This document shows positions 18,980 through 33,380 of a stretch of DNA of 34,023 nt, piece by piece. Location of the stretch: assembly GCA_000826855.1 (NCBI GenBank), contig JTLS01000079.1, forward strand, positions 1 to 34,023, written 5' to 3'. The stretch comes from Basidioascus undulatus (taxonomy: Eukaryota). Below the pieces are notes generated by a model, which was given only the letters and a program-made list of their open reading frames with translations, searched no databases and had not been told where the DNA came from. The translations under genes were made by a program, and so were the position numbers. The stretch's first letter is position 1. Every line of letters begins with the position of its first letter.

Positions 18980-19859
18980 ATGGTACGTCTGATTTTACTT
19001 CTGGGATTTGCTGCGTCTGTCTGTGGGACTCGCAGCTAGGTCGGGCGGGGTATTCTGACTTAGCGCTGGTCCCGGCATGACAGGGTTTCCGCCACAACAA
19101 CGTCCTCCACGCGAACCACTTCCGCAAGGACTGGCAGCGCCGGGTCAAGACCTGGTTCGACCAGCCCGGCAAGAAGAAGTCGCGCCGCGTTGCGCGTGCC
19201 CGCAAGGCGGCGGCTCTCGGCGTCCGCCCGCTCGAGCTCCTCCGCCCGGCTGTGCGCGCGCCGACCGTGCGCTACAACCGCAAGCTCCGCGCCGGCCGTG
19301 GCTTCTCCCTCGCCGAGCTCGAGGCCGCCGGCATCCGCAAGAAGGAGGCGCTCTCGATCGGCATCCCCGTCGACCACCGCCGCCGCAACAAGTCGGAGGA
19401 GGGCCTTAAGCTCAACGTCGACCGCCTCAAGGCCTACCGCGAGCGCCTGATCGTCTTCCCCCGCAACGCCAAGAAGCCGAAGAAGGGCGACTCGACTGTA
19501 CGTATTCGCTCATCTGGGGCCAGATCGAACAACGGTGGGGCTGGGAGGCTTAGGCATGTTGGTTGTTGGCGTCGCGCAGGACACCTCGGCCCCCACCACC
19601 CGCAACGTCCAGTCCGTCCTCCCCATCCCCGCCGGCGTTGCGCACGAGGCCCCGCGCAAGATCACCGCCGAGGAGAAGGAGCTCGACGCCTTCACCACCC
19701 TCCGCAAGCAGCGCAGCGACGCGCGCCACGCTGGTGCCCGCGCAGAGCGTGCTCGCAAGGCAAGTCCTCCCACCATCCCTCAAACCGCTGCATCCACTGA
19801 CTTGGAGGCATTTCGAGCGATTGCAGAAGGCGGAGGAGGAGGAGGCCAAGAAGAAGTAG
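18980..19859 (+). CDS. RPL13: 60S ribosomal protein L13 (eL13)
   Basis: Exons 18980-18982 (ATG), 19084-19497, 19580-19759, 19827-19858/9 give [32 protein letters not shown]...[16 protein letters not shown]...[13 protein letters not shown]...[10 protein letters not shown]. Strong C/G-ending codon bias. Confidence 0.97.
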
Positions 19860-21553
19860 TGCGTATCGCTTTGATCACGTTCTCAAAATGCTCCATCCTA
19901 ACGTGTCGTCCTTTCTCTAGAACGCACCCGCGTCGACGTTCTTACTGCCCTGTCCACCTTCCATGCCGGTCTCTTGTGCCATGTATCTTCGCTGCCTCAA
20001 CCTACGCCTACGCTCTACGAACGAACTTTCAGGGTTGTGTGTGCTGGAAGTGATGTCGAGCGTCGCGGACGTCCGTAAAACTGACCTGACCTGCACTCAC
20101 TCATTTTCGCGTTGCATCCCTCGATCGTCTTGTTCTCCTATTTACCGAGTTCATCGGAACTTTGCCCTATCGCTTCCGGACGTCGGCTCAGCCTGCATTT
20201 GGATGACTTACACTGACCGAACGCACACGTCCGCCGCGCTCTTGCTCAGGTTCGGTGCGTTATTGAGACCAATAGCCGTCCGCATTTGCACTACTGCCAT
20301 GCCCTCTGGCAATAACCTCGGCGCCCAGACGATTGCTGGTTCCTCGTGCGTCGCCACGAACAGGGTACATTCGGAACCACATCGCACTTGAACGCACAGT
20401 CCGAAACACCCTGCTGCTTGAACTGATGCTGTCGCATCTAAACAGCAATCTCTCCGCTCGACGGCGTCCCGCTTGAGAACTGGCAATCCATTGTCGTGCC
20501 TCTGCGTTCTCTTTCGCTTCTGATTCATTTCATCTTCTTTGTAGTCATTTCGTACTTCTACGCACATGGTGAAGTGGTGTTTAAATCGCCGAAGCTCGTG
20601 TGCTCACCGCCTGTCGAACTGTGTCACCCGCAATTCTGCCATGATGCTGAGACTGCCTCGTGGTGGCGGGCGTGCGCAGAAGCCTGGACGCTTGCGATGC
20701 AGGCAAGTGCGACCCAGAAGACAACTTACTACGCGTACAGGCGGTGAACTGGGAATTCAAATCCGAGCTTTCTTTGAAGGCTGTCTCCAGTGCACTTGCT
20801 GTGGAAAAGCCCTTGGGACGGTGGTAGTTACCAAGTTCGCAAGCGGCGACAGTCGTGTCTGACCGTTCACGTCTTGACAACGTCTCAGTGACACGTGAGA
20901 AGACGCTGACTGACTATTCGCCCTGCGCCGGTCCCTTTTCTGTCGTCACCTTGTCAATGTCAAACTGGTGCTGCTCGGCGGTGATTTTCGATCTTGGGTG
21001 CACCAGGCATTTTACATACCTTGCTTCGTGTTGCTGCAGTGCCGTCACAGGCTGTCGACTGCGATCTAGCAGCGACATCCCCGCTGATGCAAGAGTTGAC
21101 AGACACAACAGCTTTACAGCTTCGCCCTCTTGTATTTCTTCAAGCCGAACTCAAGGGAGACCCGAGTTGCAGCAGCCCCAGCCCCCCAGTAACATGAAGG
21201 CGCAACCTCTCAGTGACCAGTGGATTTGCGGCGATTCGCTGCAGTGACAGCAGGCTCTGCGCTCCATTACCTGAGGAGATCAGTAATCAGCACAGTAGTC
21301 TTTGGTTCAGTAATAGGCAGCTCGCAACAGGGGAGCTTGGTAGCGAAAGTGTGGCGCAAGCATTTCTGGAGAAATGTGCCATGGAAAGCCAGCAGCACAG
21401 TCGGTCTCAACCGACACCAGGCTTAGTTCGCAACAACTCCGCGGGCACGCTTCACGAATTCGAAACTTTCCTTTTCAACGCTAATCTAAGACGTCTTTTC
21501 CCGCCTCGTCACTTCTGTTCGCTGACCACACCGAGCGTTCTCGGTTCAATGAG

Positions 21554-22359
21554 ATGGAACGCTCGATCGCTTCCTTCAACGCCTCCTCGACGACACAAAC
21601 GACACCTCAGACCCCTCACACTCTCGAGTTCGATCCATCTCGCTACCCTAGGTCTCGTCCAAGCCGCCGTGTATCGCCTTCTCCTGCTCGAGAAGTTGTG
21701 AAAGATCCAAAGAATGAACGCCCTGGACCGTCACCATCGAAGCGACGGCGCCTCTCGGATCTACCCCCGCCACAGTACCCTCTTGCCTCCGGCGCCTCGC
21801 CCAAGGCTAAACCCGCACCGGCGTCACCTGAATCCCTCACTTCATTCGCTCATCCGCTTCGAGACGCACAATCCAACCCGGCTTCGGGTTCTTCCTCCCC
21901 TATCAAAGAGTCTGCCACCAAAGACCCTCGCACAAGCCCATTGGAAGTGCGCCGGCGCCCCCGTTCCATTTCGTCTACCTCTGATGATCATGGAACAAAT
22001 CCGCCGGCACGCTCATCGCCTTCAAAAATGGTACATACTTCGGCGGACGTTGCGAGCGCAGAGGAGACGCATTCTAAGGCTTGCGGGGAGTGGAACAACG
22101 CAAGAACTATGAGCTGTTGCAATCGATGCGGGAGATGAACTCCGTTTGGTTTCATTGTTGGAAGGAGGTGGGAATTGAATGCGTTTTGGGCTTGGTATCT
22201 GAATGTTGGTTGGGTTGGTGCAAATTGTGCTGTAATGCTTGTTCGGTTCGCGGGCTGGGGGTGAAGCTCACGCTGCGAAACATGCACTCCGCACGAGCGA
22301 GCGGAAAAGGAGAGCAAGAAGACGTGCCAAGGAGGGAGACCAGGCTCTCTGGGTGTTAA
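21554..22359 (+). pseudogene. Ser/Pro-rich protein with basic NLS-like patch and a frameshifted Cys/His-rich C-terminus
   Basis: 194-aa ORF with PSKRRRLS ending MSCCNRCGR*. An overlapping frame continues NSVWFHCWKEVGIEC...WCKLCC. Confidence 0.3.
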
Positions 22360-22886
22360 GCCAGAGGAAGTGGGTCACAATCTTACCTCAGTTGCAGTGC
22401 TCGGTGCTGATGATCATTGGATAATGGGTTGCACTGGATCTTGCTTCACGTTGCTGCGTCGACAGACTTTCAATCGCGACCTGACACCGGCATTTCGACG
22501 AACGTCAAGGTTCATTCCTACCATTATTGACTTCTTTTCTATTTATTTTGAGCTTAACTAATGGAGAAGACCCGAATAGAATAGATGAAGATACAAGCTG
22601 TCAGTGACCAGCGAATACTGTGCGGGCCAAAGTCTGCTGCACTAGCAGCAGGCTGTTTACGGGTCCAGTACTTGAGGAGATCAGAGACCAGTTTAATCTC
22701 CAAAAAAGGGAAAGATCTGTTGCGTCTGTTGCCCTTCGGAAGGCCGAACACCGGCAGGAAATGAGGAGTTATGCTTTGCAGGAGTCGACAACCTGAACGA
22801 CTTGGCCTGGCGTCTCGCACAGGCACCGCGAAGCCTCTCCCTCATCCTGAACTGCTGCCGGCGTCCTGCTTATGTAGCATAGGTGC

Positions 22887-22891
22887 AAAAA
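22887..22891 (-). terminator. RNA polymerase III terminator (T5) of tRNA-Pro
   Basis: Five Ts directly follow the discriminator base on the minus strand. Confidence 0.8.
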
Positions 22892-22987
22892 GGGCCTAAC
22901 CGGGAATTGAACCCGGGACCTCTCCCAAACATGCAACTGCACGGGCTGCCACCCGAAGGGAAAATCATACGACTAGACCATCAGGCC
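22892..22987 (-). tRNA. tRNA-Pro(CGG) with 24-nt intron (22928-22951)
   Basis: The reverse complement folds as acceptor GGCCTGA/TTAGGCC, anticodon arm TTCCC-TT-CGG-G[intron]T-GGGAG and T arm CCGGG-TTCAATT-CCCGG. The intron sits at the canonical 37/38 position. Confidence 0.93.
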
Positions 22988-23996
22988 GATGTGCATAGCG
23001 TCCTCAAATACAATTATCAGTTATCAGTCTTTGAGTACTGCAATGCCGTTTTGGAATCAACCAAGACACTGCGTGTAAGCGAGATAATGCAAACCGAAAC
23101 CCGAGCATTGTGTTCATTAGCAGTGTCGGCAGCTGACGATGCAACGGGACGGCTGTGTATGGGAAGCGGGCGGTTTGGCCTGCGAAGAGCCCGAGATCGC
23201 GTTGGAAACAATGCATGTCGGGAGAGGTAAGTAAAGTTACTTATGAGAAGAAAAAGGTCCTTACGGTCAAGTAATGTGAACCCGTCGGCTAACTATGAGG
23301 CACGATCAGCCTGTGGGTAGTCTCCGTAGTTCGCGATTTCTATGAACAGTCATCGTGAGAAAGAATCCCAACTCCAGGATTAAGAACTCAAAGAAAAGTT
23401 GCCAATAGTATAGGGAGCGCAAGAAAGGATGCGAGCGCAGCTGTGTACAGCAGTGCCGCAACTAGACGGGTCAGGAGAAAAAAGGCATTGAGGTCCGCTT
23501 ACGTGCTGCTAGGACATCACGATAAATTGTTCTAAATATTTCAGGGTAAAAACTGTGGAAGAGCTTACTTACATTCTGGGGCTTTCTGGGATAGCTGGTA
23601 TCAGGGTTTCCAGACCTTGATGAAATCCAGGCGTGCCCGGACTCCTGCTCAACGGCTACCTTTCTTCGGCGAAACTCAGGGGGGCCTCTTTTCTGTCTGC
23701 TTGGGACATTGAGCTACAAAACCGCTGAGTGTAGCTTGAGGGTCCCATCTCTGCGCAGCCAAAACTCGACTGTCTCGCTTCGTTCTTCGCTGGGTTTCGG
23801 CGCATGGACCACATACTCTTGCAGGCCACCTTCTTTCAGCCCGCAACTCAGTTAATACACCAATTAATGTGGATCTGCGTTCAGTCGTGATTGATTTCCT
23901 CCAGCTCGAAGTGCTGCACGTTACTGCACCGAAGGACCGCGTGAAACTCTACTCCCGCTTTATGCAAGTCAAGTGAATTTGATAACGTCAGAATCT

Positions 23997-24022
23997 CCGT
24001 CCCTGTGACCCGTCCCTGTGAC
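23997..24022. repeat. 13-bp perfect tandem duplication (CCGTCCCTGTGAC x2)
   Basis: Seen directly in the sequence. Confidence 0.8.
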
Positions 24023-24064
24023 CCGGAACACAGCCATAGTCGACAAGCGCGACCGTGTGCCCGA

Positions 24065-25530
24065 CATGGCAAGCTGACAGCGGAGCTCGGCGCTCGTCCT
24101 GCCTGCGCTTTGCCAATCACCACGACCCTCCTCCACTACAGCGACCTCTCGAAGAGCCATCGATATGTTAGGAAACTTTCGATGTACTTCCGGTTAAGGT
24201 TCTCAAGGCCATCCTCGGGCACCTTCCTCGCCCTCGCGACCTTCTGGCGCTGTCTCTCACCAGCAAGTTTGTGCGCTCTGTCGTTTACCCACGCCCTTTC
24301 GAGCTTCGATACATCCGGACCCTGCCTCGCGAATTCAATTCTTGGACTATTTCGCTTCCCACCCGGCCATTGCGGCTGAGGTGCGTTCATGCACCGTCAC
24401 GGCCTGGCCGTGCCCGAGCTCGTGCCTGCGGAATGCCGCAATGTCGAGGAAGACAAGCAGGACCTCGAGAAGGCTGAGAGTCCGGAGGACGACGCCGAGG
24501 CTGGAACGAGTGAAATCCAAGAAAGCTGGTCGGAGGACGAGGAGGAGTGGGAAAGGAGGGCCGAGAGGGAGCAGCTCGAACGCCAGCAGTTTGAGAACGG
24601 CGATCCTGTCTGCTCTGAGGCACATGACGGGCCTGCAGCACTTCGTCTGGGACGAGAACTGCAGGACTTCTGACAAGCTCTGGGGGTTGCTGTTGAAGCA
24701 CTGTCCCGAGCTAGTTGGCTTAAATGTGAGCTAACAACCGGTCTGGCCTTGCCTCACTTCTCTTTCGCTGCACCCCTTCTCCCTACCGACACCGCTTCTT
24801 CTCGCTTTCCTCGCCAACCATCCATTTGTTACTCAACTTGAGCTTTATCGGAAGGCGAAGGACCCCTCGACATCTTCTCTTTGCCTGCTTTCTCGCTCCC
24901 GAACCTCGAATCCTTCGTCGGCTCGACTGCGGACGTGATCACCCTTCTTTCTTCCGGGACACGTCCCGCTCCGTGCCCTCAGCGGAGTTTCTTTCAAGAC
25001 CTTCGAAAATGATGATGCCAGGCTTGACAGTTTCCTGGCCGCGCTGCGGGCGGTTGGGCTCCACGTTGAGAAGCTCGAGGTCTGGTGGTGGGACGACCTA
25101 ATGCTGGACATGCTGGCGGAACTGACCAAGGTGGGACGGCCTAATGCTGGATATGCTCGCGGAGCTGACCAAGGCGGCGCCGCGCTTATGGCACCTCAGA
25201 TTTAATCCACAGCCGTATGTTGGACCTGATCTGGTAACGAGAAGTTTTTTCAATGCCCGTTTTGCTTGCCACGCCGACGCCTGCCTATGACATTTGTTTT
25301 GTCTGACTTCACGCAGTCGCCCTGGCATACCGCTCTTTCTGTTCCCCTATCTCGAAATCCTCTTCGGCTCTCCGATACTTCCTCAAACCACAGCGACGGG
25401 CTTGAAGCCATGCTTGCAGAGAATGATGTCGATGTCGGAGTACTTGACACCGGGATCAGGTCTCTGGCAACGCATGCCCGTCGCTGAGGGTGCTCGGCGG
25501 CCGAAACGGCGGAGAGGTGTCTATCTTTGA
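24065..25530 (+). pseudogene. Basidiomycete F-box/RNI-like leucine-rich-repeat protein pseudogene
   Basis: Fragments in shifting frames: LDYFASHPAIAAEVRSCTV, an acidic insert, AILSALRHMTGLQHFVWD, LLKHCPELVGLNV, LPNLESFVGS, VEKLEVWW and AAPRLWHLRF. Multiple frameshifts and stops. Boundaries approximate. Confidence 0.55.
25088..25173. repeat. 43-bp imperfect tandem duplication (4 mismatches)
   Basis: gtgggacgacctaatgctggacatgctggcggaactgaccaag (25088-25130) followed by gtgggacggcctaatgctggatatgctcgcggagctgaccaag (25131-25173). Confidence 0.9.
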
Positions 25531-25994
25531 GAGAGAGGGAGATGGAACGTTGAGAAGCTGGGAAAGTCTCCGCAGGATCTTGTGGGAGTTCAGCGAGGGA
25601 CTTGAGGATGCGCAGTGAGGGTATGAGAAGGACGCTGGTCGATATGCAATGTGTTTTTTGCGCTATTTTTGTTGGACCCCTTCAACCCTGAGTGTAGAAT
25701 CACGCTTGCGCCCCCTCTCTCCAAGCTGCGGTTTTCAGACAGCTCACCGACGCGAGAAGGACGACAAAAAGTAGCAAGCAGGTCGCAAGAAGAGCTTCTT
25801 TGATAGCAAGAGTGTCAAGCGAACTGCCACTTGTCCGCTTGAGACGAACAAGGGGCTTACGACGCAGGCATTGGTCGTGCAACTTACCCTTGTTCTTCTC
25901 TTTCGAATTCGTCCACACCCACCGCAGTAAACCCACTCCCTTGATCACGAGGTTTTACAACTAGTCTCTAAAACACAGCGCAGGTCTGCAGATC

Positions 25995-27432
25995 ATGTCC
26001 CTGAACGCTGTCGCGGGGGAGAGCGAGAGGCCCAGCGCGGCCACAACGGATTTGGTCCAGTCTCCTCAGAGGACAAGCCCTCCAAGCTACGAAACCAGGG
26101 GTCGTACGGCGACGATTGAGGGTGAGGATCCCGAGCGGCTTGTGACGGATGATTGTGAGTGAACACTTCAGCTCCACCGTTTCTTTCTCCAGCGCTCACG
26201 AACTCGCATCATCTTGAAGCTCCGGCAAGCTTCAATTGGTACAAGGGCGCTCTTCTCCACGATGGCCCCTTTGGAAGGGTCTATCTCGGCACGAATGCGA
26301 CTACAGGCGACCTTGTGGCGGTTCGCGAGCTTAAGCTTCCTGTCGTCTCGTCGAGGGCCGGGCAGGCCGGGCGCAACTTTTCTGCAAGACTGGCGTCCGA
26401 AGTCGATATCCTCAAAAACATGAAGCACCAGAATATCGTGCAGTTCATTGGTGCGTATTCTTGAGCTTTTCGTTATCGCCGTGAAGGATGGTTACTGATA
26501 TTGCTCAGGAGCAGCTGCACAATCGTCGGCAGAAGACGACTGCTCTTACCTCTTCTTCGAGGTACGCACCGCGACAACCCGAAACTTACCCCACATCGCT
26601 CATCTGCTCCATATTTCAAGTATCCTGCTGGGGGACCTGTAGCTTCGCTGCTGAGTAACTATGGCCTTTTCGAGCGCGAGCTCGCGCGCAACGTTGTGCA
26701 ACAGGTCCTCTCCGGACTCGCGTATCTGCACGAATGTTCCCTTGTGCACGGAGACATAAGGGGTGCAAATATCTTCCTTGATAACAGGGGCCAGGCCAAG
26801 GTCTTCTACTCTGGCAAGGTGTTCGAGGAACCCCAGGAGGGCACCGACGACGCCCCGGTGGGGCAGAGCGTGCAGCACTCGGTGTTTTGGACGGCGCCTG
26901 AGGTCGGCCTCATCTACACGAGTGATTCACATATAAATTTGGCTAAAACCTTTGGCGGGAATGATGGCCGGGTAGACTCTCGAGAACGGAATGTACACCG
27001 CGAAGACCGACATTTGGAGGCTGGGTTGCGTGCGTATTTCCGTCCTCTTCTTCTGTAGAATTGAACCACTAACTTTGGTCATAACTGGAAGTTTTTCATT
27101 GAGATGATATCCGGACAGCACCCCTACGTATGCTCCAGAGCTTCGTTCGATGCGCGGACCCAGTCTCACGTCGAAGCTGTTCTTGACAGCCCTCCCTCAC
27201 CGCGGACGAAGTCATAGACGAGGTTCACCTTCCGCTCTGATGACATGAAATAATCTGAGAAATGGTGTTTAATTGGGGCTACCTACAGATGAGGTCGTCT
27301 CGGTCACCCGCCGTGCCCGGCGATGTTGACGAAGAGGCCAGCGACTTCGTTGCGCTCACTTCCAAGACCGACCCTGCAGAGCGTCCTACCGCCGCGCAGC
27401 TCTTGCAGCACCCGTTTGTCAGAAAAATTTAA
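25995..27432 (+). CDS. STE11/BCK1 (MAPKKK)-like kinase-fold protein, predicted pseudokinase, 8 exons
   Basis: Exons 25995-26154, 26219-26450, 26509-26561, 26621-26902, 26976-27029, 27092-27127, 27190-27222, 27289-27432 splice into one open frame: WYKGALLHDGPFGRVYLG..VAVRELKLP..EVDILKNMKHQNIVQFIG..LFFEYPAGG..GLAYLH..HGDIRGANIF..SVFWTAPE..YTAKTDIWRLGC..EMISGQHPY..DPAERPTAAQLLQHPF. Confidence 0.85.
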
Positions 27433-27934
27433 TTTAATATTTTCTAAGAGTGAGCCCATTCCTCGCACCTCTAGTCGCCATCTGACTTGGCCTGATTGCC
27501 GCAGGGCTGGCGGAAGACGGCTGACTGTCCTTCGTTGCGCCGTGACACTCTTCATGATTTGATCAATTTCGCATGATCAGCAGGTTGGACGCTTTGGACT
27601 CTCATGACAACATCTTTCAGTTGCTCTGGGTGGCAGGAACGGACACTGTGGATGTCGCAACGCTGTAAGAACCCCGCTTGCTCCACGAAGGCCTAGCGAC
27701 TCTGCTGAGGGGAAGTGAACGTTTGTCTCCGCAACAAAGAGTGGCAATTACTCCTGGCATGAGAAGCGCCTAGATAATACACCAAAGACATGAACCTGTC
27801 GAAATTCAGCACGGCAACACATGCCAAGGGCTGGGATCCGAGATGGGACTGTCCGCCTGCCGTTCGACCATGCAGACAGCCCTTCCGCAAGCATCTGCGA
27901 CATATAAGCACAAATGTGACGAAGCCATAAATGT

Positions 27935-29565
27935 TCATGTGCTCTTCGCCTGCTCCATCCTTCTTAAAGCCTCCTTCGCTTCGCGGACGCCTTCCCGCAA
28001 CCCGACCTTCTGGCTCTCCTCGATCGACCTGTGATAGTTGCTCTTCGCCTCCTTTGGGTTCTCCAGCATCTGTATCCAGCATCCAGATCAGCAGAAACCC
28101 CCCAAAGTGTGAGCGAACGGGCCTAGCGCACCTCATGCAAGACGCCGAGGTTGAACAAGCCCGCAGCGAGCGTCTGGCCGCACAGGATGGACGCGGAGTC
28201 CTCGGGCGCGGACGGCGTCGGCGACCCGGCAGCGGCGGAGGTCACGTCGACTGACTTGTCGGCCCAGGTCAAGGCGGTGCGGAGGTTCGCGGTGGAGGGG
28301 TGGCTCGTCAGGATTTGGGAGAGGTTGTTCATCAGGAGACCGGCTGCGCGCGACCACCGTATAAGCTTCGCTCAGATAAGGGATGCATGAACGCAGGTTT
28401 ACCTCGGCACTTCTCGTCCTTTGTGGGTTCACGCGTTCGGCTCTCGGGCGGGGGCATGAGGAGCGTGAGCGCTTGGATGTAGAGCGGCACCGCATCCCTG
28501 AAATTGCAGATGAGATTTGAGTTCGGGGAAAGGCATAGGGCCACGAAAAAGAGTGCTACTTACTGTGCTCGGCCTTGCCTGGCGTATACAGCACCCAAAG
28601 CCTCGAGCGCCGCGCCCAGATCCGTCCGCGTTATCCACTTCGGCAGCTGCAGCTCGTGCACCAGCAGGTTCTCGCCCTCCTCGCCCTTGATCTTGCGGCC
28701 CGCAAGCGCCATTTTGAGCATCTCCTCGACGCCCCACTCGAGGTACTTCTCCGCGACGTCGTCCGACACCACGCGCAGCGCGAGGTCGCCCATCTTCTGA
28801 CTCATCGCCACCGCGCGCATCCGCTCGGCGGGCAGGAGCTCATCCTCCCGCAGGGACACGATGGAGGACAGCGCGGGCTCGAGCACGCGCAGGGCTGCGG
28901 CGGGACGCCCGGCAGACTCGAGCATCGTGGCGAGCGAGACGGAGATGCCAGTGAGGGCGAGGAGGGGAGTGGGTTTCAAAGTTTCGGGAGGGAGAGTCTG
29001 AGCGGTTTCCAGAGCTCTATCGACGCCGAGCAACATGTCAATGGACTGTCGACCCATGTCAACAGCAACGGACGCACTTTCGGAACAGGTCTTCCGACTT
29101 GACGTAGTCGCCCGAGTTGCGACATTTGATTGCGAGACGAAGGTCATCGCGGACCTCCTTGGGCCAGGTAGTGAAGCTGGAGTAAAACTCGAGGCTGACA
29201 GGGTTATGTTGGTGTCAAATGGAAGGTTAACTGCGATCGAAAGAGTCAAGCGACGCACATGCTGTAGATCGTCACGCCCAAACCAGCACAAACGAGCAAG
29301 CTGAGGAGGTGCCCTAACCACAGATCCCTGGATTAACAGAACGCCACAGAAAATACATTGTGATAGGCCTCCAACCTTGTCGCAGTCCACCTTGCTTGCC
29401 CTGCTTCCCTTCAGCCTGAGTGGAAGAATACTGAGCGAAGGAAGACGGGGCGCTAGGCGCGATCGACACGGGAGCTGCCCTCGAGAGAGCGCGAGGCGCG
29501 GCCGCTCTAGGCGTAGCGCAAGTTAATGATCGATATGGGCGCGTTAGGGCTTTGGACAATTGCAT
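27935..29565 (-). CDS. Mitochondrial TPR-like inner-membrane protein, Mgr3-like (i-AAA protease adaptor family)
   Basis: Arg/Ser/Ala-rich presequence MQLSKALTRPYRSLTCATPRAAAPR, then a spliced TM segment ITILLVCAGLGVTIYSILEFYSSFTTWPKEVRDDLR. Helical repeats follow (LGAALEALGAVYARQG, AVPLYIQAL, GLFNLGVLHE), ending EAKEALRRMEQAKST*. Family assignment is from recall. Confidence 0.65.
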
Positions 29566-29752
29566 AATGTTGGGGTGGATGATGAAGGTGAAGGAGAAGA
29601 CGCTCCGAATCGGGGTACGCATCCCGCTTTCGGCGCTGTTGCCCAGTATGAAACCCCCAACATCGGCGAATTTCGCTGCAGCCTATCTTGCCAAACTATT
29701 TCCAGCTTCTTACCTTCCTCTACTCCTCCCCTCCCCCGGAACTAATATAGAC
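29566..29752. promoter_or_regulatory. Compact bidirectional promoter region between the Mgr3-like and Mak32-like genes
   Basis: Divergent ATGs are only 187 bp apart, with a pyrimidine-rich leader on each strand. Confidence 0.5.
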
Positions 29753-31260
29753 ATGGCAGACTCAAACACCACTGACCGGAAAGGTGCACTAGGATATTCA
29801 GCTTTCATTCTAATCAAGTGGACTACGCTGACATGCCTAAGTGATGCTCATCTTTCGTCGCTCAAACTCGATTTCGCTATCTCGATCATTCATATGCAGC
29901 CCTCGTCACGTTGGGGATGTTCATTATTGACCAGTTCGTCTGGGAAGATGAGCACGGTAATCATACCGGTCGGGAAAGCATCGAGCAGGTGCGTCTATGT
30001 GCTCTCAGAGCCATTCGGAAGGTCACTGACATCGCATGCTTCACAGATAGGCGGTGGCGGAACCTACGGTAAGCACAACGCAATATGCGAGGCGTACTCG
30101 TAGCTGAAGGTTTTGTGCGCTACAGCCATTATAGGTGCCCGGATATGGCTGCCTCCCTCAGACCTGGGCATGATCGTCGACCGAGGGCACGACTTCCCCT
30201 CCTCGATCCTCTCCTCCCTGAACGCCTTCTCCTCCCCTTCCCCCTCCTCCTCTTCCTCCCTCTTCCACTACCGCGACGACCCCATGCGGAGCACCACGCG
30301 CGGCCTGAACCTGTACAAGGGCGAGCTGCGCGGGTTCGAGTACCTCAACCCGCGCGTGCGCATCTCGCCCGCGGGGCTGCCCCGCGCCTTCGCGCGCCCG
30401 CGCTGGCTCCACTCTATCTGCGGGCCCGCGCGCTTCCGAGAGGTGCAGCGTGAGCTGCGCGAGCTCGGCTGGGCGGGGGACGTCAGGCACGTGTATGAGC
30501 CGATTCCGGGGCTTTGCAACCCGGGGGAAATGCCTGCGCTAAGGGAGGCGCTGAAGGAGGGGGTGGACGTTCTATCGTGCGTCTGCGCCTTCAATCCTCT
30601 CTTCTTTCATGTGCTTCAAATGCTGAAGTGACTTGAAACGGGATGCGCAACAGCCCAAACCACTCGGAAGCAGCCGAGTTCATGGGCCTCCCCGAGCCGA
30701 ACAGCCGCGAGGGGGTGGAAGACCTCGTCCGCCGCTTCCACAAGGCGGGCGCGAGAGGGCTCGTGATTCGCTCCGGGGCGATGGGTGCTGCTGTATCGGA
30801 CGGCGGGGAGCTCGGCGTGCGCTGGGTGCAGGCGTACCATACGGATCCGGCGAAGGTGGTGGATGTCACGGGTAGGTGGTACTTCTGCGTGTTCGAGGAA
30901 GGTGTCAAGGGCAGCTGAGTGAAAGTGCTGATTCTCTGCCGATGCGTACCACAGGCGCAGGAAACGCCTTCCTAGGCGGTCTCGCAGCCGGACTGGAGCT
31001 GACGAACGGGGACTTGTACGAGGGTGCGCCGTTCTCTCTCCCTTCTCTTCAGCCCCTTTCTTTAGAGCTTCGAGCAGCTAGCTGACATTCGAGGATGTCG
31101 ATCTACAGCTGCCCTCTACGCCTCCGTCTCCGCCTCGTACACGATCGAGCAGATGGGTCTGCCTTCCGTTTCCGTTGGGGCAGACGGCGTCGAGCGGTGG
31201 AACCGATCCGACACGCCTGCGGAGAGGCTGGAGGCGCTGAGGAAGCGGCAGGCGGCGTAG
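29753..31260 (+). CDS. PfkB/ribokinase-superfamily protein, Mak32-like
   Basis: Spliced LVTLGMFIIDQF...IGGGGTYAIIGARIWLP...GMIVDRGHDFP...RGFEYLNPRVRI...VYEPIP...VDVLSPNHSEA...VIRSGAMGA...VVDVTGAGNAFLGGLAAGL...ASVSASYTIEQMGLP, stop at 31258-31260. Confidence 0.85.
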
Positions 31261-31596
31261 AAAGGGGACGATGGACACGGATCGGATGGAGCGCGCTCAG
31301 GCCTTCATTACATCAGCATATTATAGAAGCACACGGATCACGAATTATTGTGGAGCTTTGGAGTGTGATGCGTGCGTAGGAGTACGAGCACGAAGAGGCG
31401 CTTCATCTAAAAGCTGCGCTGCACATACTGAACGTTCCTCGCTTCCTCTTTTTCCAAGCCAACGACGGCGACGGAACCCAGACACACACTCCAAAGTAGA
31501 GATCAAAATGACTGCGCCGAACTCGTCCTCCTACAAGCACACTTGCCCACACCCGCTGAACACTGTCTTTCCCCGCACTCTCCTCAATCCCCTGAT

Positions 31597-32700
31597 TCAA
31601 TCCAACGTTGCATCCTCGCTCGCCTCCCCCACCCGTCTCCGCGCGCCCTCGGCCGCCTCGCCGCCGGCGGGCGTGTCCTGCCCCGAGGCGGACACGCTCG
31701 CGGGCTCGCCGGCCTCGTCCTTGGAGCGCTTCTTCTTGCCGCCCTTCTTCTTCGGGACGTCCCACTCCCAGAGGGGGATGAAGGACTCGACCTGCGGGAT
31801 GGAGGGTGGGTGTCAGGCGGGGCGGGGGAGGAGGGAGAATGAAAGAGGACGCACGAAGCCGACATCGTCGAACAGCTTGGGAAAAATCCAGATCCCGGGG
31901 CTGGCGACGAACATAGTGATGATGTAGAAGATGAGGCGGACGACGGCGATGGCGAAGAAGAGGCCGATGAGCCCCAGCACGCCGATGGAGAGGTACCACA
32001 CGCCGATGCGGAGCGTCGCGGGCCAGAGGGGGAACATGACCCCCGCGAGGACGACGGCGACGAGGGCGGCCGCGCCGAGGTACGCCTTGAGCTGCGACCC
32101 CGCGTACAGCCACACGTAGTAGTGGTCCGGGTGGAACAGTTGCTGCGGCGTGATCTGCAGCGCCTTTGGAGAGCCCGCGCCCCCGATGGCGTTGCCCCGC
32201 TCCACACGCAGGTAGAACGCGAAGGGGATGATCAAGTGCAGGAGCTTGAGCGCGTCGGACTCGGTCGTCACGGGCGGGACGGAGCGCAGCTTCAGGTAGG
32301 CGGGCGAGAGGAGCGCTTTGACGGCGGAGCGGCCTACGGGGGAGGAGAGGGGTATCAGCGTGCGTTGGGGAGTGGCGGTTGCAGTCGAGGTATCGTTCTT
32401 GACATGCCAGTCACCGACTAAACACCCCACCACATCTCCCCGCCATACCTCTCCCTCCACACCCAGCACCGGCCCAGCTCCGCCAGCGCCCGCTCAGACT
32501 CACCCTTGAAGTATTCCACCCGCTTCCCATTCAGCGCGCCCTTCCTGATCTTCATTCCCGACTTCTCCCGCAGAAAGTCCACGACGAGCTTGAGGTCCGC
32601 GGGGATCTGCGTTCCGACCCACCCAGCGCTCCTATTCAGCTCCCCTTCCAGTCCACAGGAAATAGGAAAGGCAAGGACGGACCTTCTTTTGTTGCTCCAT
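31597..32700 (-). CDS. SEC62: ER translocation protein Sec62
   Basis: Four exons: MEQQKK|IPADLKLVVDFLREKSGMKIRKGALNGKRVEYFKG|RSAVKALLSPAY...YYVWLY...LAGVMFPLWPATLRIGVWYLSIG...VRLIFYIIT...PGIWIFPKLFDDVGF|VESFIPLWEWD-KKK...ATLD*. Confidence 0.95.
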
Positions 32701-33380
32701 TTCGCCAGTGAGAGAGAGTGGGGAGATGAGAAGAGGAGGAGGAGAAAGAGCAAGCAGTTGCTGGCGAGCGGAAAAGCCGGGACGCGAGCTTGCCAAGTTA
32801 CAGCGTGGCGGTCGCGCGATTCCGTGTCGTTGTGAGTCGTGACTGCGCGGGTGTTTTCGCAAACAGCGGCAGGAGGAAGGGTTTCGCACAGCTTTTTTGG
32901 TTGTGCTGACTGATTGAAGGGGCTTTACTTTGAAGAAGTTGAAAGGGAGAAAGGGGGCACAGAGGCTCGAGTCCCAGTGACAGGACAGGCAGACAGGCAG
33001 ACTTCTGTCCAGCTTGACAGCCATTGTACGCCGCCCCACGTTTGGACGCCCAGGGAAACGCTTGCAATCATGGAAGAAGTCCGTCACATTTCTTTATTCG
33101 TGAAGAATATGCAAGTTGATGGCCAAGTAGGACGTTGCAATTTGCAACGCTGCACTGTGCAGGGGGGTACTGCCCATCCGTGGGACAACCTCGCGTCTCC
33201 CGGCCATGTCTAGTCCCAAGCAGGCGCTCTTGCTCGCCCCAATCAGAACTCCCAACCGCCCAGGGCGTGATATCAAGCCTCGCCCACTCAGCCCAGCCAA
33301 TTGCAGCCCCTCTTCCACTCCCTGCGCCCTACCCCTGCGCGCTAATTCAATAAAGCACACAACCGAGCGATCCACGAAGG

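Follow-up and report, generated by a model that had tools for sequence, protein, structure and literature searches.

Pseudokinases born from duplicated active kinases are frequent, and within the cascades of mitogen-activated protein kinases (MAPKs) non-catalytic roles have precedents in both animals and fungi. In the animal ERK module, KSR1 and KSR2 are kinase-dead relatives of the MAPK kinase kinases (MAP3Ks) that act in their pathway by binding, as described in PMC3014569, and the Wis4-Win1 pair of fission yeast provides a fungal precedent for an inactive MAP3K with a structural role, as described in PMC3608495. Here, we analysed a stretch of 34,023 nt from Basidioascus undulatus (contig JTLS01000079.1 of assembly GCA_000826855.1, forward strand; hereafter the window) that contains, on the plus strand at 25995..27432, an eight-exon gene for a stand-alone predicted pseudokinase derived from a Ste11-type kinase domain. 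The gene has lost several catalytic residues together, has diverged strongly from its family and has kept its reading frame and splice sites intact, and we lean towards the interpretation that it serves a non-catalytic role.

The closest described systems differ from this locus in several respects. Compared with MAP3Ks of the Ste11/Byr2 type, to which MEKK2 and MEKK3 are the animal relatives, the encoded protein has a collinear kinase domain with 38-45% identity. Unlike these enzymes, it lacks a SAM and a Ras-binding domain, its kinase domain being preceded by only about 55 residues, it carries Arg89, Gly192, Arg195, Tyr211 and Ser212 at catalytic positions, and its patch formed by the alphaG helix and the P+1 segment is changed. 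KSR is derived from the TKL/Raf branch and is a large multi-domain protein (CA1-CA5) that binds MEK via a conserved surface, whereas the pseudokinase described here is STE11-derived, is made up of a single kinase domain and no longer has the docking patch of its subfamily. Mammalian KSR1 also has an arginine in place of the beta3 lysine. The pseudokinase is not a member of the KSR family, and a functional parallel between the two would be one of analogy only. Wis4 and Win1, in turn, are full-length, naturally active kinases of the Ssk2 type that form their heteromer via N-terminal regions and Mcs4, an arrangement that is absent here.

Our literature search yielded no description of a stand-alone fungal pseudokinase derived from Ste11; the survey by Kwon et al. 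2019 may list such proteins. If functional, the protein would add a non-catalytic component to the surroundings of the pheromone/filamentation MAP3K in a basidiomycete lineage from which few genomes have been sampled. Nature would here also have remodelled the active site of a kinase domain together with its canonical docking surface and preserved the fold.

Ancestry and catalytic motifs

An exhaustive phmmer search with exon 4 against 1.84 billion representative sequences gave 5265 matches at E ≤ 1e-3, and relatives were drawn from the best 150 of these. By script, the spliced protein matched 149 of these 150 sequences, 96 of which align over at least 240 residues. Removing 22 distant or multi-domain rows from the 96 left 74 Ste11-like rows, which form the comparison set for all residue counts given below. 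The best full-domain matches carry a SAM, a Byr2 Ras-binding (Ras_bdg_2) and a Pkinase domain, extend over 264-331 aa and come from Pleurotus, Neolentinus, Panus, Suillus, Pterulicium, Sporobolomyces, Trichomonascus and, as Byr2, from S. japonicus. The best single-domain PDB match of exons 2 and 4 is MEKK2 (9p6a; E = 8.7e-7 for exon 2). In addition, the protein retains the Ste11 family signatures NW.KG at its start, FGRVYLG, NIVQ, YG.F.E, GL.YLH, FW.APE, DIW..GC..EM and RP.A..LL.HPF. As judged from these similarities, the gene traces back to a MAP3K of the Ste11/Byr2 type, of which it represents the kinase domain. Neither a SAM nor a Ras_bdg_2 match was found among the 246 stop-to-stop open reading frames (ORFs) that span 75 aa or more in the whole window.

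By sequence, a pseudokinase is a protein with a kinase fold that lacks at least one of three residues, namely the beta3 lysine, the HRD aspartate and the DFG aspartate, as defined in PMC13519141 and PMC4718504. Two of the three are gone here. In the VAVR motif, the beta3 lysine, found in 73 of the 74 relatives, is replaced by Arg89 (codon CGC, 26324..26326), and the DFG motif reads YSG (26807..26815), with Tyr211 in place of an aspartate found in 71 and Ser212 in place of a phenylalanine found in all 74. The HRD aspartate is kept as Asp193. The catalytic loop reads HGDIRGAN (26747..26770), in which the HRD arginine (71/74) has become Gly192 and the catalytic-loop lysine (74/74) Arg195, while Asn198 is preserved. 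In the Gly-loop, HDGPFG (26258..26275), His67 takes the place of the first glycine, which is a glycine in 73 of the 74 relatives, and Gly69 and Gly72 are kept. Overall, six of the 13 catalytic-core positions are altered: the first Gly-loop glycine, the beta3 lysine, the HRD arginine, the catalytic-loop lysine and the DFG aspartate and phenylalanine. The retained positions comprise the alphaC glutamate (Glu114, 26399..26401; 72/74), the HRD histidine and aspartate, Asn198, the DFG glycine, APE (26894..26902) and the DxW motif (DIW, 27009..27017).

Because six of the 13 catalytic-core positions are changed, phosphotransfer is unlikely and we regard the protein as a predicted pseudokinase. The Arg89 codon CGC differs from both lysine codons at all three positions. 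Because it is thus three steps away from any lysine codon, it hints that the lysine-to-arginine change is old and that the arginine has been retained since. These results agree with a previous sequence-only reading of the stretch, which had proposed a stand-alone kinase of MAPKKK origin and had called it a pseudokinase by loss of the VAIK lysine and the DFG aspartate. Its four altered motifs (HDGPFG, VAVR with CGC, HGDIRGAN and YSG) were all recovered at the positions it had given, and the structural motifs that it had listed as kept (alphaC Glu, APE, DIW..GC and RPTA..LL.HPF) are present in the sequence and in the alignment with the relatives.

Exon structure, divergence and frame preservation

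Joining the eight exons by script gave a coding sequence (CDS) of 993 nt, corresponding to 330 codons plus TAA without any internal stop, and seven introns that all begin with GT, end with AG and are 58-73 nt long. Exon 1 (25995..26154) encodes residues 1-54, an N-terminal extension rich in Ser, Pro, Thr and Glu; an in-frame stop lies 10 codons 5' of the ATG at 25995, and the ORFs of that stretch gave no Pfam match. Intron 1 (26155..26219, 65 nt, GTGAGT..AG) is followed by exon 2 (26220..26450), which encodes the N-lobe with Gly-loop, beta3 and alphaC, and intron 2 (26451..26508, 58 nt, GTGCGT..AG) by exon 3 (26509..26561; residues 131-148), which is collinear with the relatives. Intron 3 (26562..26620, 59 nt, GTACGC..AG) precedes exon 4 (26621..26902; residues 149-242), which spans the region from the hinge to APE. 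Intron 4 (26903..26975, 73 nt) has a weak donor, GTCGGC..AG, and its removal restores a gap-free alignment to the relatives. Exon 5 (26976..27029; residues 243-260) contains DIW..GC, intron 5 (27030..27091, 62 nt, GTGCGT..AG) includes a CTAAC branch-point-like site, and exon 6 (27092..27127) encodes residues 261-272. After intron 6 (27128..27189, 62 nt, GTATGC..AG), exon 7 (27190..27222; residues 273-283) contributes the alphaG helix, and intron 7 (27223..27288, 66 nt), with a second weak donor, GTTCAC..AG, leads into exon 8 (27289..27432; residues 284-330 plus TAA), which ends the C-lobe with RPTA..LL.HPF. The Pfam Pkinase profile (PF00069) is covered in order by exon 2 (profile positions 8-64, E = 1.3e-7), exon 4 (81-167, E = 1.6e-12) and exon 8 (226-263), the last match being below the cut-off (E = 2.2e-4). 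Thus, the eight exons, GT-AG introns, uninterrupted frame and extension of about 55 aa that had been read from the letters are borne out, with 54 residues preceding exon 2. A processed, retro-copied pseudogene is ruled out by the seven introns.

Because the spliced protein aligns to Ste11-type kinase domains through exons 4-8 with zero gaps and at exact length, the weak donors GTCGGC (26903) and GTTCAC (27223) are supported. Further support comes from a sequencing run, X3, which is labelled 'DNA?', none of the runs listed for the locus being registered as RNA. Its contigs skip 12 GT-AG introns of the window, all of which are present in the DNA assemblies X1 and X2, and X3 therefore behaves as a transcript assembly. 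The 12 introns verified in this way lie in RPL13e, the downstream minus-strand gene (27956-29375), a PfkB-family gene and Sec62. Because the donors of these introns include GTAAAC, GTTGGA and GTCCGT, GTCGGC and GTTCAC fall within the local range; 11 of the 12 introns are 57-82 nt long and one is 170 nt.

X3 also covers the pseudokinase locus, of whose sampled words it contains a fraction of 0.29. Its depth was 3.65, 3.13 and 2.91 in three bins across 26005-27405, whereas the preceding bin had a depth of 0.23 and the following one a depth of 0. Elsewhere, intergenic bins had a depth of 0, Sec62 about 60-150 and RPL13e about 900-1400. Across 19000-33000, X3 depth ranged by gene from 0 to about 1700.

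The divergence of the protein is not confined to its active site. Among 108 family-invariant columns, defined by at least 90% conservation, 63 are kept, compared with a family median of 98.6% and a minimum of 82%. The previous claim that the gene loses only catalytic residues therefore fails, with 45 of these columns changed. Identity to the family averages 39% and reaches 43.8% at most, whereas pairs within the family average 62.5% with a minimum of 43.9%. We inferred a quick LG+G4 tree from 83 rows, after 14 had been dropped, and a site-mixture tree from 41 chosen rows. The end branch of the pseudokinase measured 1.81 in the former and 4.46 in the latter, each against a median of 0.2, which amounts to 9-22 times the family median across both trees. 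Constraining the protein to a group with 19 Ste11 rows from basidiomycetes lowers the log-likelihood by 0.18 units and is not rejected (approximately unbiased test, p = 0.448), so that an origin from a basidiomycete Ste11 is allowed as a candidate placement inside the fungal Ste11 set.

Short, degenerate Ste11-like proteins also occur in other Agaricomycetes and include KAJ3499938.1 of Agrocybe chaxingu (P0128), KAJ2931360.1 of Candolleomyces eurysporus (P0014) and KIP11254.1 of Phlebiopsis gigantea (P0030), together with P0095, P0019 and P0113. Like the pseudokinase, they are kinase-domain-only or fragmentary relatives of Ste11, and some of their substitutions overlap with those found here: P0128 has LMAVRQ and HGDIRGAN, P0014 has YFG, P0030 and P0095 have HGD, and P0019 has HRDIRG and SGF. 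In contrast to the pseudokinase, they sit on branches of 0.19-0.97 beside the canonical Ste11 of their respective lineages, with the 86-aa fragment P0113 at 2.18. The Agrocybe protein P0128, a candidate orthologue on account of its VAVR-type Arg and its HGDIRGAN, was rejected, as its identity is 68% to canonical Pleurotus Ste11 but only 41% to the pseudokinase. Because its pairing with the latter received a value of 34 in the Shimodaira-Hasegawa-like approximate likelihood ratio test (SH-aLRT), the shared changes look independent. We read these copies, from their placement and identities, as independent younger events or partial gene predictions and not as orthologues.

We next set the divergence against what neutral decay would have left. 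In the neutral model, the excess divergence was taken as about 0.215 substitutions per nucleotide site, and 3.3% of single-base changes in the CDS make a stop. This yields an expectation of about 7.0 stops and about 6.0 hits on the 28 bases of the splice dinucleotides, whereas none was observed: no lesion affects the start codon or any of the 14 splice dinucleotides, and the 993 nt are free of internal stops and frameshifts. Under neutrality, stops alone give an intact gene a probability of about 9e-4, and adding the splice sites lowers it to about 2e-6, with indels left uncounted. With a neutral share of just one quarter of the excess, stops plus splice sites would still give about 0.04. Because some seven stops and six splice hits are expected and none is seen, most of the divergence, the catalytic losses included, appears to have arisen under protection of the frame. 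A brief recent neutral phase would not suffice because six of the 13 catalytic-core residues are changed. Consistent with the claim that the frame stays open, frame and splice sites are thus preserved beyond the expectation for neutral decay. The GC content at the three codon positions is 0.61, 0.46 and 0.68, compared with 0.48 in the introns and 0.52-0.53 in the flanks, and an expressed neighbour has values of 0.63, 0.49 and 0.78; the codon-position composition is still coding-like.

Docking surface and candidate roles

In MEKK2, a member of the STE11 subfamily, a surface formed by the alphaG helix and the P+1/APE segment mediates dimerisation and is required for phosphorylation of the MAPK kinase (MAP2K), according to PMC12780230. 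The residues named there are Met567, Ile570 and Phe571 of alphaG and Met528, Pro530, Ile533 and Ser534 of the P+1/APE segment. We mapped them via two alignments, from 9p6a to P0014 and from P0014 to the pseudokinase. The alphaG positions correspond to Asp278, Ile281 and Asp282 (27205..27219), so that the hydrophobic knob is now acidic; among the 74 relatives, methionine occurs 59 times, isoleucine 51 times and phenylalanine 68 times at these sites. The P+1/APE equivalents are Thr239, Pro241, Leu244 and Glu245, at sites where the relatives have Met (74), Pro (74), Val (71) and Lys (65). Within the TAPE segment (26891..26902), the P+1 methionine has become Thr239, and Pro241 and Glu242 are kept. 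By this mapping, acidic or polar residues now stand where the relatives have the hydrophobic knob and some of its pocket. From conservation and by analogy with MEKK2, we infer that fungal Ste11 may use the same surface.

Because the alphaG/P+1 patch has turned acidic and polar, a simple MAP2K decoy is argued against. The protein is unlikely to titrate a MAP2K by simple mimicry, and a changed binding partner seems more probable. The interpretation to which we incline, with modest confidence, is a non-catalytic, binding-type role with an altered partner that is kept by selection. In this scenario, a duplicate of a Ste11/Byr2-type kinase domain without the SAM and Ras-binding regions would have been kept as a one-domain protein, and selection would maintain the kinase fold for non-catalytic work such as binding, allosteric regulation or sequestration. 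A more specific version, which we put forward as speculative and rather doubtful, is that of a long-lived, fast-evolving Ste11 derivative, reduced to the kinase fold, which would have swapped its hydrophobic docking patch for an acidic one and would regulate the Ste11 module in trans as a factor specific to its lineage. Ste11 and Byr2 are autoinhibited by their own N-terminal region. As one possible route, a mimic of the Ste11 kinase domain might bind this autoinhibitory region of Ste11 or another upstream partner. If true, such a trans-acting regulator would show the KSR principle realised in a fungus on a STE11 basis.

Several observations weigh against a selected binding role, and most of them would also suit a recently inactivated or functionless relic. 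On that view, the gene would be a partial duplicate of Ste11, or of an active paralogue that had already diverged, which is heading to decay but, by chance or because its release from selection is recent, has stayed open and weakly transcribed. The change of 42% of the family-invariant columns, docking patch included, also fits long relaxed constraint. At the 45 changed columns, the replacements have a mean BLOSUM62 score of -0.22, compared with -0.36 in a null of one-step non-synonymous mutations, of which 5866 of 20000 draws reached at least the observed score; the replacements are thus no more conservative than this null and could pass for unfiltered one-step mutations. Versus random residues, the same 45 replacements are far more conservative (0 of 20000 draws as high). 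Neither an orthologue nor a close relative was found in searches of protein representatives, clusters and metagenomes. Exon 4 identity never exceeded 61% among the best 150 of the 5265 phmmer matches, and the same query against a 5.8-billion-cluster collection gave no candidate among proteins of similar length. Among longer proteins of that collection, one of 109 candidates was significant, an unrelated multi-kinase protein of Pleurotus. A metagenome scan returned 60 loci, all of them partial or generic kinase matches and none orthologous; the four best-covering loci listed (L055, L047, L045 and L014) are 20.8-27.5% identical to the spliced protein. Sec62 of the same window, by which the organism falls within Basidiomycota, has best matches of at most 73% identity, which places the nearest sequenced relatives of the organism at a distance. 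To this are added the two donors that depart from the usual GTRNGT, the longest branch in the family and the existence, in other Agaricomycetes, of short, degenerate Ste11-like copies that have short branches beside canonical genes and look as if they had begun to decay recently. Transcript-like contigs cover the locus at low depth, which hints at transcription, and its splice joints are predicted. What speaks against a relic is the intact frame: enough neutral drift predicts the roughly seven stops and six splice hits given above, even a quarter of it leaves little room for an intact gene, and the combination of six catalytic-core changes with zero frame-breaking lesions calls for long frame protection. 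In addition, a GC content of 0.68 at third positions is well above that of introns and flanks (0.48-0.53). We therefore consider a relic a real but unlikely explanation. An artefact of the gene model, in which a favourable choice of splice sites would have opened a frame across a broken gene, could draw on the same two unusual donors and is highly improbable, because the junctions restore a gap-free alignment of exact length through exons 4-8, the intron lengths fit those of all but one of the 12 local introns verified, donors just as unusual are used by neighbouring genes, and the Pkinase matches of three individual exons follow the order of the profile.

The remaining alternatives concern the activity of the protein. 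A decoy or dominant-negative protein would bind a MAP2K of the Ste7/Pbs2 type, or dimerise with Ste11, via the canonical surface and would thereby damp or scaffold a MAPK cascade. Descent from Ste11 makes such a role conceivable, pseudokinase scaffolds of MAPK modules such as KSR exist (as described in PMC3014569), and catalytically inactive Wis4 or Win1 still supports signalling within the MAP3K heteromer of fission yeast (as described in PMC3608495). We nevertheless consider it distinctly improbable, as the residues of the MEKK2-type surface are replaced (Asp278, Asp282 and Thr239 for Met, Phe and Met) and the N-terminal regions that serve contacts in Wis4-Win1, with Ste50 and with Ras are absent here. 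Even less probable is an atypical active kinase that compensates for its lost residues as WNK and Haspin do. It would profit from the conservation of Asp193, Asn198, Glu114 and two of the three Gly-loop glycines, and some predicted pseudokinases turned out to be active, as described in PMC3014569. However, four changes at the ATP/Mg site occur together (beta3 Lys to Arg, catalytic-loop Lys to Arg, DFG Asp to Tyr and Gly-loop Gly to His), the spine residue Phe is altered to Ser as well, and the Gly-loop strand offers no WNK-like substitute lysine, the residue after the third glycine being an arginine. In view of the frame preservation on the one hand and the rewritten docking patch on the other, a selected, non-catalytic binding role remains the reading that we favour. 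At present, the gene is probably a lineage-restricted pseudokinase, represented by one gene in one genome.

Neighbouring genes and further observations

The window covers a gene-dense region with genes for a gamma-glutamyl transpeptidase, a cutinase, RPL13e, an F-box protein, the pseudokinase, a PfkB-family protein and Sec62. The sequence-only reading had contrasted the open frame of the kinase with neighbouring dead genes. This does not hold for the downstream neighbour on the minus strand (27956-29700), in which six CT..AC introns are spliced in X3 and which is open over 412 codons starting with MQLSKAL; RPL13e, the PfkB-family gene and Sec62 are spliced too. In its ORFs of 75 aa or more, this expressed downstream neighbour had no Pfam match at E ≤ 0.001. 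The upstream gene (24172-25600, plus strand) has an F-box-like match (E = 3.3e-5) in the ORF at 24172-24474 and apparent frame changes downstream of it; one low-depth X3 contig spans 24328-24559 of this gene without a gap. An arrangement in which the kinase would serve as the effector domain of a fungal NOD-like receptor (NLR), an idea taken from PMC9815663, was dropped after the ORF scan of the window returned no NLR-type domain.

Over the pseudokinase gene, both DNA assemblies, X1 and X2, agree with the window at every base and thus show no polymorphism. Within 22962-33000, position 29718 is the sole base at which both deviate, with A in their contigs where the window has C. At 22887-22994, the depth of X1 and X2 leaps to 333-1020, many small contigs stop, and numerous differences and indels occur; the assemblies break at this segment, which is either a dispersed repeat or an element of low complexity. 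Farther upstream, at 21730-22140, a second long contig in X1 (30 kb) and in X2 (90 kb) matches in three pieces with 9-19 differences each, which points to a diverged paralogous copy elsewhere in the genome.

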